A DNA stretch of 7,198 bases from Selaginella moellendorffii (lineage: Eukaryota; Plantae; Lycopodiophyta): contig NW_003314470.1 of assembly GCF_000143415.4 (NCBI RefSeq), positions 26,858 through 34,055 on the forward strand. The letters are read 5' to 3'. This document shows positions 631-7,198 of this stretch, one piece after another. Position 1 is the first letter of the stretch. The number at the start of each line of letters is the position of its first letter. The position numbers were made by a program, and so were the translations under genes. The notes beneath the pieces are model-generated. The model did not search any database. It saw nothing but the letters and a program-made list of their open reading frames with translations, and was not told the DNA's origin.

Positions 631-1292
631 AGGGAAGATCGACGTCCTCGTCGATGCACACTCGAGTCTAGAATACCGCCAAGGAAACAACTCTAGAAAA
701 AGTTCACGGTATTCACACTATGTGAGAAATGCACCAACTTAAATGAGTTAAAGGGAACCTCTGTGTCTAATGCGGATGCACTACCAGCTCAGACACCTTC
801 CGGCCGTCGCCGACAAGGAAATGACCAACGGAGTTAGCCACCCTTGCTGCTCTAGTTGTCATCCAGCTTACAAAAGTGTGATATGCCCTGCCCCAGAGAC
901 ATAGAGAGAGGAGCCAGGGGCCCCAACCCTCCTGAGCAAAGAAACCAAACCCGTCGGTAAGGTTTAGATAGACTACTATAAACATGCAGTTAGAGTTGTT
1001 TACACGGTCACGCCCTTTCAACGGAATAAGGAACATCGACAGAGAGGCGGGTTATGTGACCAGTCTACAGTAGCTACCCCATGACTAGAGATTTCAACAT
1101 GCACACGAAGTGCCGAAGCCAGTCTGCCTATACTGGCCCAAGTTCAAAGATCAATAGATGGACAATATCAAAGTCATAGACAATGATATCTTAAAGTCTT
1201 AATTATCAGTGTGTAAGGAACCAACTCGCCGAGGTGTCGTAGGCTAAAGGAACCCCGAAAGCATGACCAAAATGACAAAGAGTTCATTGGAT

Positions 1293-1578
1293 GGGACCAA
1301 GTCGAAGATCGAGTCCAAGACCGACTCTAGGACCGAGTTCGAGATCGAGTTCGGAATTGAGTCCGAGACCGAATCGGGGACCGAGTTCGAGTCCGAGTTC
1401 GAGACCGAGTTCGAGACGGAGTCCGAGATCCGAAATCGGGTCCGAGACCGAGTCCGAGGTCGAGTCCGAGGTCGGGTCCGAGATCGGGTCCGAGATCGAG
1501 TCCGAGATCGAGTCCGAAACCGAATCTGAAGTCGGATCCGAAATTGGGTCCAAGATCGAGCCAGAGACTAAGTCCAAA
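1293..1578 (+). repeat. Degenerate 12-bp (2 x 6 bp) CpG-rich tandem array inside the LTR, consensus approximately GAGTCCGAGATC / GAGTTCGAGACC
   Basis: Read directly, e.g. gagttcgagaccgagttcgagacggagtccgagatc; roughly two dozen units. It generates the low-complexity ORFs at 1263-1584. Confidence 0.92.
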
Positions 1579-1623
1579 TACTAATACGGGTCAAGGGGTG
1601 AAAGCCCAAAGCGTGCGTCTCCC

Positions 1624-1642
1624 GGGGGGGGGGGGGGGGGGG
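1624..1642 (+). repeat. G19 homopolymer
   Basis: 19 consecutive G shortly before the assembly gap; the length may be unreliable. Confidence 0.85.
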
Positions 1643-1661
1643 CTTCCGGTTCCAAAAGTAT

Positions 1662-1823
1662 NNNNNNNNNNNNNNNNNNNNNNNNNNNNNNNNNNNNNNN
1701 NNNNNNNNNNNNNNNNNNNNNNNNNNNNNNNNNNNNNNNNNNNNNNNNNNNNNNNNNNNNNNNNNNNNNNNNNNNNNNNNNNNNNNNNNNNNNNNNNNNN
1801 NNNNNNNNNNNNNNNNNNNNNNN
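1662..1823. other. Assembly gap (162 N)
   Basis: Run of N. Confidence 1.
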
Positions 1824-2325
1824 CTCCCACTCCCGAAAGGGAAACCGATTGCGGTGCTCCCGGCTCATGTGGAGTGGTGCCCCACTTGAGTACCATGCGG
1901 CTCATTGGTCCTCGCCCTTCCTAGGGGCTTGGGCCTTCCTTCGGGATGGAAGTGGGGGGCGAGAGGTACCCATACCGGGCCGCTAGGCCACGGTGTTTCG
2001 CCCCGGCGTCCCGAAGCAAGTGTTGCACCCAAGACTTGGGATTTAGAGGGTCCCATGATCAAGTCTTGTGGTACCAAAGGATGTTAGGAACCTGGAAGCT
2101 TGGTGTGCTTGGCTGCTTGTGCTTGCGGGGAGTGTAGCCGAACCTTAAGTCCAGTCTAACCCAGGGAGGGGGATTGGGAGTGATTTGGGAATCCGTGGAT
2201 GGATGGCTAACACTCCGTTGCTTGTGCAGTGAGTAGCTGAGACCAAGTAGGAGCTGGTACCATAGGCGAGAACCTTGGCAAGGGAACTTAGCAAAAGCCA
2301 AGGCGGTGTTGGACGGATAGACGAG

Positions 2326-2391
2326 GTAAGCTGGCAAATTGGAAAGGAAAAATTTGTGGCTTACAATTTGGTATCGGAGCCTTTTCCTCAG
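2326..2391 (+). other. Candidate 66-nt spliceosomal leader intron spanning the U5 end and PBS
   Basis: Donor GAG|GTAAGC at 2326; acceptor CTTTTCCTCAG| at 2391 (alternative TTCTAG at 2397); lies 33 nt before the gag ATG. No reading-frame constraint is available to confirm it. Confidence 0.5.
2369..2381 (+). other. Primer binding site for plant initiator tRNA-Met
   Basis: TGGTATCGGAGCC versus the canonical plant TGGTATCAGAGCC (12/13; the difference allows a G:U pair), 3 nt after the LTR-terminal CA. Confidence 0.92.
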
Positions 2392-2424
2392 TTCTAGCGA
2401 AGGATAGAGGCGGATTGCTGGGAG

Positions 2425-3600
2425 ATGGCAAGGGTAGGGCGTAAGCGAACCCAGGCGGAGACGGAACCTCCGCTAGAGCTGGAGCCTCCGGTTGAACAAG
2501 AGGCTATGGATGAGGAATCCTTGCATGAGGAGGACTCCAGTGAGGAAACTTCCAAATAGGAGTCCGGTGGCGAGGTTCGGTCGTCCAAGGCTCGATTGGA
2601 CGTGCTAGAAGGACAGTTGGCACAGACCAATGCCCTGCTGGAGACTCTCGTATGCAAGTTAAAGCGTGACGAGAAGCGGAAGAAAAAGCGAAAGACTGCG
2701 GATGCTGGCAGCGCAGAAGGTGCGGACCCTTCGGCAGGGACTGAGGCAAAACCAGACAAGGTCGAACAGACCGAAGTGGAATCAGTGCCTCAGGCAGTTC
2801 CCAAGTACAAACCAAAGCCCCCACCGGTGTTCAAGGGAGTGAACGACTATAAGGTTGTGGAGGATTGGTTTTACGATATGGAGGACTACTTCCGAGCGTT
2901 GCGGTTACCGGGCTCGGAGAAGGTCCCATGTGCAAAACCATACTTGGCAGATAATGCCAAGTCTTGGTGGAGAATAACGGAGGCCAACGAAGGACCGGTG
3001 GCCACCTGGGACATGATGAAGGCGAGGATCCGTGCAACATACGTTCCTCCGAATGCCACTCTGCATCTGAGAGATGAGCTGAGTAGGCTGAAGCAGACTG
3101 GAACCATCCAGGAATATGTGAATGGGTTCATGGCAAAGAGGATACTTGTCATGGACATGGGGATATGGATGCGTTCCATGCCTTTATATCAAGTTTGCAA
3201 ACCTGGGCTCGCGGTGAGGTGATGCGCTGGAACCCGACCAACTACAAGGAAGCGTTGGATGCGGCCATCAAGGTGCATTTCAACGATAACCTGCGAAAGG
3301 GGAACACGACGGGGTCGGGATCCACGTTTCACAAAGGGGCCAAACCGAGGGGAACATATAGCAAGGGGAAATTCAAGAAGAGTTTCTCTAAGAATGAGTC
3401 CTCGGGGTTCCGGAAAGGCAAATCTGGTGGCCAGTGAGCGAGTACGTGGGGGAGTCAAGCGAAAAAAGACAAACCCACGGATAAGAAGGCCAAGTCGTAT
3501 AGCAGCGTGGGAAACAACGTATGCTACAACTGCGGCGAAGCGGGACACTTCTCGAGGGAATGTCCCTACCCGAAGAAGGCCAGAGCCAATATGGCCATCA
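2425..3600 (+). pseudogene. gag: Gag region (retrotransposon capsid-like domain plus CCHC zinc knuckle at 3522-3563)
   Basis: PPVFKG...VEDWFYDMEDYF...AKSWW...TWDMMK...LKQTGTIQEY, and CYNCGEAGHFSREC (CX2CX4HX4C). Boundaries approximate. Confidence 0.9.
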
Positions 3601-3695
3601 AGTCGGGTGAAGTCCAAACTGAGGTATGTGATCCAGTCCCTAACTCAAAGTTACTCATTACACGAGCAACTTTGGTAGAGAGTCGTTCGCGACAT

Positions 3696-3983
3696 CTACT
3701 AGCCCTCCGAGGGAAGCTCGGAGGTAGCTTTGTTAAGATCCTTATTAACACAGGTGCTTCGGATAATTTTGTGGCTGCAGACATAGTCCGGCAAGCCGGA
3801 CTAACGGTGCAGCAGCTAGGCGAACCAAGGACTATAGAGTTTGTTTAGGGTAGCCAAAGCACCGATGAGGTACTTCGACAAGCGAGAGTTGAAGTGGGGA
3901 CATGGAAAGTGGACATGGATTTCACCGTCTTGGACATGGCGGGATTTGACGTGATCTTCGGAATGGATTGGTTTAATCGGTTC
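3696..3983 (+). pseudogene. Retropepsin-type aspartic protease domain (inactivated)
   Basis: ILINTGASDNFV (D[ST]G motif with D changed to N at 3747) and DVIFGMDW; interrupted by TAG at 3846. Boundaries approximate. Confidence 0.88.
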
Positions 3984-4289
3984 GTGGTAGCCCTGCATGG
4001 ACAACGTAGGAACCTTGTGGTATTGGCGAATGCCCAAGGAAGAAGATCTAGGGTGGAGGCCCAGGATCTAAAGGTAGGGCAAAGCAAGGCCAAAGAGTCA
4101 TGCTTAAACCTGGTGTCCACGAGAGGACAACTCACTAGAGGAACTAAGGTAGCCTTTTTGTGCTTACTCTCGGTGAAGAGTGACAAAAAGACAAGAACGG
4201 AAGAAGTACCTTTAGTGATCCAGCAGGTGCTGGACCAATTCCAGGATACCATGCCGGAGGAGCTACCGGCGGGGTTGCCCCCCGCACGA

Positions 4290-5180
4290 CCGATAGAACA
4301 TAAGATTGAGCTGGTCGAGGGTGCTGAGGCGGTGGTTTGTCCACCCTATCAATTGAACGAAAAAGAACTCAAGGAGCTCAAGAGCCAACTCGAGGAGTTG
4401 GTGGACAAAGGGTATGTTAGGTTGAGCAAGTTGCCGTATGGGGCGCCGGTGCTATTTGTGAAAAAGAAAGATGGATCTATGCGCATGTGCATAGACTACC
4501 GGTTGCTCAACAAGTATACCAAGAAGAATAAGTACCCTTTGCCAAGGATCGAGGACCTGTTCGATAGGTTGGGAAAGGCAAAATACTTCTCGAGGATTGA
4601 CCTAAGGTCAGGATACTACCAGATCAGGGTAGCCGAGGAAGATGTCGAGAAGACAACCTGTCGAACGAGGTATGGGAGCTTTGAGTTTCTGGTGATGCCC
4701 TTTGGGCTGTGCAATGCGCCGGCAACGTTTTCGGCGTTGATGAACCACATATTTGTACCCTATCTGGATCACTTCGTGGTCGTCTATATCGATGATATCC
4801 TGATCTATAGCGAGACACTAGAGGAGCATGCCGAACACTTGGCGAAGGTGTTTGAGAAACTAAGGGAACACAAACTGTATGCTAAAGAGAGCAAATGTGA
4901 CTTTGCTCAACAAGAGGTAAAGTTTCTCGGGCATGTGGTGGGCCAGGACGGGCTCAAGGTGGATCCGGAGAAGGTCCAAGCGATCCAGGAATGGGAGCGA
5001 CCTTCAAATGTACATGAGTTGAGGGCGTTCTTGGGGCTATGCAACTACTATCGAAAGTTTATCAGACACTATTCGAGAGTAGCCCTGCCCTTAACGGACC
5101 AAACCGGAAAAGGGAAGATGGTATGGACAGCGGAATGCGAGGCGGCATTCGTCCACCTCAAAGGGAAGTTGAGGAAGGCT
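4290..5180 (+). CDS. pol: Reverse transcriptase domain
   Basis: [54 protein letters not shown] (4785-4796), [18 protein letters not shown]. Boundaries approximate. Confidence 0.97.
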
Positions 5181-5199
5181 CCGGTGTTGGCATTACCAG

Positions 5200-5560
5200 A
5201 TTTTGGTAAGGACTTTGAGGTAGACACGGATGCTTCGGACTTTGCGTTGGGCGCAGTTTTGAAGCAAGACAACCATCCAGTAGCGTTCTTCTCGAAGAAG
5301 TTGGACAAGGCTCAACGGAAGTGGCCTGCCCACGAGAAGGAATTGTTTGCGGTGGTCAAGGCGCTCAAGGAGTGGCGACACTACCTTGGGAGACACTTCA
5401 AGGTTTACACGGACAATGTGGCAACGAAACACTTCTTGTCACAGCTCGACCTGAGAGGGAAACAAGGTCGGTGGGCCAATGCCTTGGCCGAGTTTGATTG
5501 CGAGATTCTGTACAAGCCTGGGAAGAGCAACATCGTGGCAGATGCGCTAAGTCGAAAAGT
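5200..5560 (+). CDS. pol: RNase H domain (Ty3/gypsy type)
   Basis: [34 protein letters not shown]. Boundaries approximate. Confidence 0.95.
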
Positions 5561-5759
5561 GAGCTTGAGGTTGGCGATATTCAGCGCAACAGCAACCTTC
5601 TGGGACGATGTGCGGACAGCATATGAGAACGATGGTCTAGCACAAGAAGTGTTGTTGAGGAATCTGGAGGCGCGGGCAGCTCACCAGAGAGGTGAGCTGC
5701 CAACGGAAGAGAAAACGGGCTATGCGGAACACAACGGACTCATTTATTACAAGCAAACG

Positions 5760-6930
5760 AGGGTATATGTTCCAGAAGGGGGACTAAGGAAGGTAGCCTT
5801 AGAAGAGTGTCATGACGGACCTCTTGCGGGACACGGCGGAGTGCCCAAGACGATGGGCTTACTCAAGAGGAAGTACCATTGGCCAGATATGGCTAAGGAC
5901 GTCCAAGACTATGTAAAGACATGTCCAACATGTCAGCAAGTCAAAGCCGTGACTAAGGCTAGTGGGGGCTTGTTGCAAAGCATCCCAATTCCAGATCGTC
6001 CGTGGAAATGTCTTACGATGGACTTCATCACGGGACTACCCCCAAGTGAGGGGTTCGATGCGATATTCGTGGTGGTGGATCGATTTTCGAAGATGGCACA
6101 TTTCATACCCACCACAACGGAAGTGGATGCGGAAGGTGTGGCGAAGCTGTTCTTCGAACAAGTGGTTCGAGTGCGGGGAAGGCCAGAAGAGATTATCTCA
6201 GATCGAGATAAGATATTCACTAGTAGGTTCTGGAGGACCCTCCTGGAACAGTATCGCACCAAGTTGAAATTCAGCACAGCCTATCACCCACAGACAGGTA
6301 TGGGGTATTAAGTCAAGTTTGGTGGTCCTAACACTTCTTGACAGACGGACAAACGGAAAGGGTGAATAGGCAGCTAGAGGATTATTTGCGATGCTATGTC
6401 TCGGGAGACCAGACCGATTGGGTAAGTCATTTGGGACTTGCGGAAATGTGTTATAGCAACTCACCACATTCGAGTATCGGGGTGAGTCCATGGGAAGTCA
6501 TCAATGGGCGAGCTATTGAAGGTCCTGTGGAACTCGGCGTGGCCGAGTATCATGGAGAGTTACCCGCAGTGGAGGCATTCACGGCGGAAAGACTCAACAT
6601 TTGGAATCTAGTGAGGGATTCCCTGGAACGGGCTCAACAAAGGCAAACCAAGTACGCGAACCTAAAGCGCCGGGATGTAGAGTTCCAAGCTGGGGAGAAG
6701 GTGTGGCTGAACACCAAGAACCTCAGGCTACCAAGTGGGATCAGCCGAAAGTTGACCCAAAGGTAAAAATGCATGTATTCCTGTAAATGAATTGATCTTG
6801 AGTTCCTTAAGCAGGTTCGCGAGGCCTTACGAGATTGAGGCACGAATCGGTAAAGTGGCTTACCGACTCTGACTTCCTCGAGAGATGGGGAAGATGCACC
6901 CAGTGTTCCATGTGAACTTACTCAAGCCGT
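5760..6930 (+). CDS. pol: Integrase (HHCC, DDE core, GPY/F region) in three putative exons
   Basis: [11 protein letters not shown]...CPTCQ. Catalytic D at 6021 (TMDFITGLP), D at 6201 (ISDRD), E at 6356 (DGQTER). KLTQRFARPY...AYRL...HPVFHV is read after splicing. Confidence 0.93.
6298..6344 (+). other. Putative spliceosomal intron 1 in integrase (47 nt, phase 1)
   Basis: CAG|GTATGG donor, CTAAC branch motif (6328-6332), TTCTTGACAG| acceptor. Removal gives CAC CCA CAG ACA G/AC GGA CAA ACG GAA = HPQTDGQTE and restores D-35-E. Contains in-frame TAA at 6309. Confidence 0.85.
6763..6814 (+). other. Putative spliceosomal intron 2 in integrase (52 nt, phase 2)
   Basis: AAG|GTAAAA donor and TAAGCAG|G acceptor; AT-rich (17/52 G+C). 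Removal gives [23 protein letters not shown], in frame with ORF 6885. Contains in-frame TAA at 6764. Confidence 0.85.
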
Positions 6931-6995
6931 ACTTTGAGGATCCGCTTCGCAAGGACCAAGTAAGACCTTTACCTGAGGTTATCCAAGGGGAAGAG

Positions 6996-7142
6996 GAATA
7001 CGAAGTCGAGGCCATACTCAATGCGCGCAAGAGCAAGCGACAAGGACGCGTGGTGAGAGAGTTCCATGTGAAGTGGAAAGGATTTCCACACTGCGAAGCA
7101 ACATGGGAACCGAAGGAGAACCTAGCGAAATGTCCGCTTCTA
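6996..7142 (+). CDS. Chromodomain at the integrase C-terminus (aromatic-cage type)
   Basis: EYEVEAIL...EFHVKWKGFPHCEATWEPKENL; the three cage aromatics (Y of YEVE, W and F of KWKGF) are present. Confidence 0.93.
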
Positions 7143-7198
7143 TGAGTACAATATTGCTCGAGCTGCACTGCCGTCTTCCGCCCTCCCCGGCCCACCCC

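Follow-up and report, generated by a model that had tools for sequence, protein, structure and literature searches.

In the window, a stretch of 7,198 nucleotides from Selaginella moellendorffii, a decayed Ty3/gypsy chromovirus was found to contain a 66-nt intron which removes the end of the 5′ LTR together with the whole tRNA priming site (PBS), and there is very little doubt that this intron is real. The reading preferred here, held with moderate confidence, is that the splice divides the RNA of the element into a spliced pool which makes protein and an unspliced pool which is copied, and that two predicted introns of the integrase region would thereby be inherited. The features around the intron are as follows.

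2326..2391, + strand: GT-AG intron of 66 nt, comprising the LTR's last 40 nucleotides, the spacer and all of the PBS
2323..2331, + strand: 5′ splice site GAG/GTAAGC, matching AG/GTAAGT in 7 of 8 positions
2360..2365, + strand: LTR terminus CTTACA (integration end), within which A2363, 28 nt away from the acceptor, is a candidate branch point
2369..2381, + strand: PBS of the initiator-Met tRNA type, with a 12-nt motif match at 2369-2380 which we take to be that of a Met-type PBS
2381..2391, + strand: pyrimidine tract and CAG acceptor, CTTTTCCTCAG, the acceptor used in the spliced contigs
2326..2364, + strand: predicted hairpin, in which the donor hexamer 2326-2331 pairs with 2359-2364

The splice was observed in the sequencing runs X15 and X16, each of which was found to contain a single contig across the region (1/1 at depth 7.9 and 1/1 at depth 8.9, respectively), and in both contigs exactly the 66 nucleotides 2326-2391, with GT..AG ends, were skipped. 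The single contig of X17 (1/1) was found to be unspliced across the same interval, and the skip joint was present in 0 of the 4,766 contigs of the DNA run X1. The proposal of the initial annotation that 2326-2391 is spliced was thus borne out, and the interval was found to have the properties of a U2-type intron, its GT-AG ends being removed exactly in transcripts and kept in DNA. X15 and X16 are two samples of one study and X17 belongs to another; all three are called RNA-type by inference, with no RNA label on record, and X15 and X16 come from a sample other than that of X1. The contigs of X15-X17 and the 4,766 contigs of X1 were compared on 2270-2450 only, the alignments to the element covered 7 of the 24 listed runs, and contig assemblies of this kind give neither the strand nor the splice fraction. 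If collinear, the spliced contigs extend to about 3150-3320 in gag, short of the integrase. The unspliced contig of X17 was found to contain three letters which are rare in X1 (0.5% or less), and may represent read-through from one old copy and not the template pool.

In three raw RNA runs, of each of which about 12% was covered, only 62, 27 and 43 reads were found on the element, with a depth of 0 at 2364-2903 and no joint. In all three, + strand reads at 1834-2190 were traced to a single diverged fragment of the LTR, on either side of which the runs share unrelated flanking sequence; these reads belong to a host transcript carrying a piece of the LTR of the element. One diverged contig of the 4,766 of X1 (depth 146) was found to be without a net 65 nucleotides at 2303-2391, one base off the exact splice; a retrocopy, now dead, for which spliced RNA served as template in trans could account for it, as could a chance deletion.

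The donor, the LTR end, the PBS and the acceptor were found exactly at the coordinates at which they had been annotated. The donor GT occupies 2326-2327, 40 nucleotides inside the LTR end, and the LTR end is separated from the PBS motif by a spacer of 3 nucleotides. The CTTACA region was found to contain the only YTNAY match of the intron 2326-2391, so that its use as a branch site is a prediction. A second YAG was found at 2397, just beyond the acceptor at 2391, and its use was not seen in the spliced contigs of X15 and X16. Among the three introns of the element, the PBS intron was found to contain the best donor (7/8, vs 6/8 and 6/8 in the two integrase introns) as well as the best pyrimidine tract (9/12, vs 7/12 and 6/12). 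In block-wise dinucleotide shuffles of 1824-7145 (n = 500), a strict donor AG/GTRAG placed 40-80 nt before a pyrimidine-rich YAG was found in 21 of 500 shuffles, and a loose donor GTRAG under the same acceptor rule in 224 of 500; the sequence alone is therefore only moderate evidence for the intron. A role of the intron in upstream open reading frames or in the gag frame was considered and rejected, the intron being without an ATG and its length divisible by 3, and each of the 7 ATG frames which lie upstream of it in 1824-2325 having ended by 2232.

The splice sites of 2326-2391 are family-wide. In the X1 DNA, no variant reaching 3% of the depth was found at 2324-2330 or 2387-2391, in agreement with the expectation that the GT and AG would be kept across copies; this invariance was not above the background. 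CpG sites were found to vary in 12 of 12 cases and other sites in 9 of 114, and all 10 signal sites would be invariant by chance with P = 0.44, for which reason the invariance was rejected as a proof of selection. Non-CpG variants were found at 8 of 64 sites inside the intron vs 1 of 50 beside it (one-sided P = 0.038). The two variants which fall on the splice signals preserve them, that at 2331 (11%, depth-weighted) shifting the donor to the consensus and that at 2386 remaining a pyrimidine. In a diverged lineage of 11 X1 contigs, a different sequence was found behind the PBS, yet a pyrimidine-rich run ends in YAG at nearly the same place. The placement of the variants, with the signals kept, and the YAG of the diverged lineage are taken as two weaker signs in favour of function.

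The contigs with loose ends at 2342 and 2380, which may belong to one diverged lineage, share the LTR end and the PBS and differ in the flank on one side or the other. Upstream of 2342, 12 X1 contigs were found to diverge, with only a non-consensus GT near the donor position; an atypical-donor class considered for this lineage was not confirmed, its motif giving 0 matches in the 10 papers listed. The lineage could be SM2-Galahad or another sister family, in which case the order of origin of the PBS intron and the integrase introns could be read from it.

A single decayed chromovirus was found to fill 1213 to about 7129 on the + strand, in the order 5′ LTR, Met-type PBS, gag, CCHC knuckle, protease, RT, RNase H, integrase and chromodomain. 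Its features outside the PBS region are as follows.

1213..2365, + strand: 5′ LTR of 1,153 nt including 162 N, TGTAAG...CTTACA with a 6-bp inverted repeat
1624..1642, + strand: 19-G tract within the LTR
2425..6297, + strand: gag, CCHC, PR, RT, RH and the N-terminal part of the integrase, disrupted in the present copy
6298..6344, + strand: predicted integrase intron A, 47 nt, GT..CTAAC..AG
6345..6762, + strand: middle integrase exon, 418 nt, with the catalytic Glu at 6356
6763..6814, + strand: predicted integrase intron B, 52 nt, GT..TTGAT..AG
6815..7129, + strand: last exon with the SH3-like tail and the chromodomain, containing a stop at 6870 in the present copy

The order PR-RT-RH-IN was recovered with Pfam, as expected of a Ty3/gypsy chromovirus, followed by the presence of a chromodomain behind the integrase (PF00385, E 3.5e-15). 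Aromatic residues were found to be kept at cage-like positions of the chromodomain (6873-7142), which is presumably of the group I type, and its chromo box contains a His, consistent with the substitutions reported for SM1-Galahad. Stop codons at 2557, 3846 and 6870, together with a frame break near 3160 in gag, disrupt the present copy, which departs from the family sequence near 7129, a point behind which 40 DNA contigs diverge. Neither a PPT nor a 3′ LTR was found in the window 3′ of the integrase, and the 5′ LTR is the sole LTR in the window. The 3′ end of the LTR at 2365 is backed by 45 and 49 DNA contigs which diverge directly behind 2365, and the 5′ end at 1213 was placed from the inverted repeat and the LTR lengths of 1076/1146 bp given in the available text of PMC3350952. 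A degenerate array of 12-nt repeats was found within the LTR at 1286-1584, 5′ of the G tract. At 48-114, adjoining an A run at the start of the window, an inverted copy of LTR 1551-1618 was found (24 nt at 96%, 34 nt at 76%), which is probably another related LTR piece on the - strand.

The family was found to be large, with 76,533 contigs of the DNA run X1 on the element, a summed depth of about 1e6 vs 108-277 for single contigs (a depth which is not a copy number), and an LTR depth of about twice the internal depth. Most of its variation in X1 consists of C>T and G>A substitutions. The run X20, from a second organism, was found to contain 0.07 of the words. The best homologues in protein searches were 40-54% identical (best 54% in one search and 48% in another, with none passing in a third); neither a close relative nor a protein of a family member that is spliced or free of introns was among the matches. 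Among metagenome contigs, 0 matches were found to a DNA pattern of the LTR end and the PBS.

By its architecture, the element is likely to be SM1-Galahad of S. moellendorffii (PMC3350952, Novikov et al. 2012). As described in the available text of that paper, SM1-Galahad has LTRs of 1076/1146 bp with TG..CA ends and G tracts of 11-25, a 13-bp Met PBS, and a 3,885-bp ORF without chromodomain followed by short ORFs of 316 and 309 bp, the last of which contains the chromodomain; it is present in hundreds of copies, among which no intact one was found. The present element was likewise found to contain an LTR of more than 1 kb (1,153 nt, of which 162 are N) which includes a tract of 19 G, a Met PBS and the order CCHC-PR-RT-RH-IN. 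The stretch which opens at ATG 2425 and closes with the codon preceding the stop of intron A measures 3,884 nt, in a copy with one frame break, vs the published 3,885 bp. Two downstream pieces were found here, with the chromodomain in the last, in exons of 418 and more than 315 nt vs published ORFs of 316 and 309 bp; the middle exon, at 418 nt, is longer than the second ORF, at 316 bp. The short ORFs of SM1-Galahad would here be read as exons, and the paper (PMC3350952) was found to contain 0 matches for 'intron' or 'splic'. The published reconstruction, drawn from many copies, ends where read-through into intron A stops here, and was counted in favour of the two-pool reading. The sister family SM2-Galahad differs, having one uninterrupted ORF in the available description (PMC3350952). 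Families annotated without an intact copy, as SM1-Galahad was, may be intron-bearing elements which were misread and missed by ORF-based pipelines.

The integrase introns were predicted against 172 fetched intron-less homologues, from which the offsets were measured. For intron A, the offset was exactly 47 nt in 152 of the 153 homologues with matches on both sides; for intron B, the modal offset was 52 nt (44 of 139 homologues), and all 139 offsets were found in one phase. Both introns were found to interrupt conserved codons exactly, with GT-AG ends. Intron A separates the second catalytic Asp from the catalytic Glu, and the D-D(35)-E spacing fits only without it. Read-through into intron A meets a stop at 6309, ahead of the catalytic Glu, so that RNA which keeps A is unable to give active integrase; the earlier claim that unspliced RNA makes no active integrase agrees with this, since such RNA cannot encode the Glu. 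No joint was found at the integrase junctions in the three raw RNA runs, the depth there being about 1 or less. In the X1 DNA, no removal of A or B was found among the best-supported 15 of at least 120 joints (lowest depth 260), nor in the 4 indel rows that reach 2%, and in that material the search for intron-less integrase copies proposed in the initial annotation gave none. Within this scope, the family DNA keeps both integrase introns, a point which is partly shown. Metagenome and viral contigs gave 0 and 0 matches, respectively, to an intron-at-A pattern in its TAT-codon form. A direct repeat of 5 nt flanks intron A (6293-6297 and 6340-6344), and a repeated AG/GT junction motif flanks intron B (6761-6764 and 6813-6816), as expected from insertion into a proto-splice site or from target duplication.

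The donor hexamer of the PBS intron was found to be the exact reverse complement of 2359-2364, which contains the LTR end and the only YTNAY branch candidate. In RNA folding, the pair probability was at least 0.99 in three contexts. With a 53-nt window selected once the hairpin was already known, the local fold scored z = -3.6 (0 of 200 shuffles); in wider windows of 121-141 nt it was not significant (z of -1.5 to +0.6). Three variants at 7-16% were found to break pairs of the upper stem. From the folding model, the hairpin may be a candidate switch for splicing; it also offers a route by which the donor could have arisen as a by-product.

The two-pool reading joins these observations with the rules of reverse transcription. 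Both the 66-nt splice and an unspliced contig were observed. Priming by tRNA requires the PBS, at which minus-strand synthesis begins (PMC7197481, as far as its available text describes), and an intron spliced from the template disappears from the new copy (PMC12786077, likewise). In RNA with intron A, translation ends ahead of the catalytic Glu and so leaves out the SH3-like tail and the chromodomain too, and both integrase introns appear to persist in the family DNA. The spliced, PBS-less form would then be the mRNA for the full integrase and could not be copied, and the unspliced RNA would be the template. The model needs a coupling between the splices, because RNA with the PBS and without A or B would found an intron-less line. 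As the 5′-most intron, with the best donor and pyrimidine tract, the PBS intron fits an order in which it is removed first, and it would usually be gone before the integrase introns are removed. The predicted hairpin, by hiding the donor and the branch site, would let some molecules escape splicing and become templates.

The explanation of intron persistence by two such pools, put forward in the initial annotation, is supported in part, by the splice itself, by the introns kept in the listed DNA joints and by the lack of the Glu in the product of unspliced RNA. It is weakened by Ogre, which keeps an obligatory intron with no PBS intron described in the available texts, so that a PBS intron may not be required for retention. 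Also counted against the model were its two contigs of depth 8-9 from one study, the invariance at background level, the variants which break the hairpin, and the precedents of Ogre and BARE1. More tentatively, and with rather less confidence than the division into pools, the 66-nt intron may be a structure-gated replication licence, in which the donor hexamer would act in one of two ways: bound by U1, it would yield an mRNA that lacks the PBS and goes on to lose its integrase introns; paired with the LTR end, it would leave the template unspliced. Such a licence would lift the rule of intron loss and could have let the family gain host-type introns in the integrase core, and PBS-excising introns may recur in other LTR elements.

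A less likely account is that of a leader intron kept for some other reason, such as mRNA export or expression, protection by U1 against premature polyadenylation within the 5′ LTR, or elimination of a site at the PBS which small RNAs target. A separate gate, e.g., a distinct uncapped or Gag-captured RNA which escapes all splicing, would then keep the integrase introns, and the loss of the PBS would be a side effect or a fail-safe. In the available texts, BARE1 packages a separately initiated, unspliced RNA (PMC3735527), the foamy-virus donor suppresses 5′ polyadenylation (PMC3694450), and miR845 and tRNA fragments target the PBS (PMC7197481); BARE1, with its start site and capping, and Ogre, with its obligatory intron (PMC6317226), make a gate independent of a PBS intron a live rival. 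However, the intron is of minimal size and encloses just the LTR end and the PBS, no upstream ORF is altered by it (all 7 ATG frames having stopped by 2232), and the readable LTR was found to contain no AATAAA or ATTAAA.

A cryptic splice without a role, confined to transcripts of one or a few loci, is improbable. The donor would in that case be a by-product of a U5 hairpin, the partner of CTTAC reading GTAAG, as suggested by its exact complementarity to the LTR end, and the frequency of loose pairs in the shuffles, the background level of invariance, the single study and the cryptic intron spliced in Tf2 of S. pombe (PMC7175516, in its available text) are consistent with it. Against this, the spliced form was the only contig in X15 and in X16, the acceptor-like run persists in the diverged lineage, strict pairs arose in few shuffles, and the two integrase introns require some route of retention. 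A genomic deletion in the sampled plant is very unlikely, since the ends are exactly GT..AG, the undeleted form would dominate in DNA, yet X15 and X16 hold the skipped form only, and the joint is absent from the 4,766 X1 DNA contigs, even though X15 and X16 have no RNA record and come from a sample other than X1, the joint ends share a 2-nt AG repeat and one X1 contig is without nearly the same interval (net 65 nt).

The founding assay for retrotransposition relies on the disappearance of introns during reverse transcription. Plant LTR elements are generally intron-less, with Ogre and EVADE-type cases as exceptions in the available text of PMC12786077. A family with two tiny introns in its integrase core which splices out its own priming site would be a simple and testable answer to the division of one transcript between translation and replication. 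In the literature searched, with most subscription journals and Repbase reports outside the search, no report was found that Galahad elements contain introns or that any LTR retrotransposon has an intron which excises its PBS, and nothing closer than the systems below was found in the available texts of PMC2864245, PMC12130899, PMC7175516 and PMC12789967.

Among the more distant systems, Penelope-like elements were found to retain introns, one of which, in Chlamys-3_cRei, is a leader intron that crosses the terminal-repeat boundary, but they belong to another class without tRNA priming, and the significance of the retention is called unknown in the available text of PMC8557442. Spliced LTR-contained transcripts of maize likewise contain canonical introns in plant LTR sequence, whereas those introns are long (mean 1,303 bp) and lie in non-coding RNAs within the LTR, with 0 matches for PBS in the available text (PMC13192763).

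In Ogre of legumes (Ty3/gypsy), a retained intron must be spliced for the full polyprotein and is spliced in a subset of transcripts; it is a single intron between the GAG-PROT and RT ORFs, in contrast to the two tiny integrase introns here, and no PBS-removing intron is mentioned in the available texts (PMC6317226, PMC12786077). BARE1 of barley (Ty1/copia) has separate RNA pools for translation and reverse transcription, its spliced RNA not being copied. However, its pools are split by two TATA boxes, capping and the R region, and its 104-nt intron lies in gag and yields Gag only, whereas the splice here removes the PBS and leaves the whole gag-pol (PMC3735527, in its available text). No match to a TATA motif was found in the readable part of the present LTR, which includes 162 N.

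In foamy viruses, the major splice donor lies in the LTR's R region, 5′ of U5 and the PBS, and RNA structure controls the access of U1 to it (PMC3694450 and PMC7828637, in their available texts); the position of the pol splice donor had been given correctly in the initial annotation, the major donor being placed in R in PMC3694450. From this position of the donor, the spliced pol mRNA would be without the PBS. Foamy viruses differ in their long alternative introns, which give subgenomic pol and env mRNAs, and in having no host-type integrase introns in those descriptions. By analogy, the present element would reach two pools like those of BARE1 by a route like that of foamy viruses, with the donor in the LTR, while being a member of neither group.
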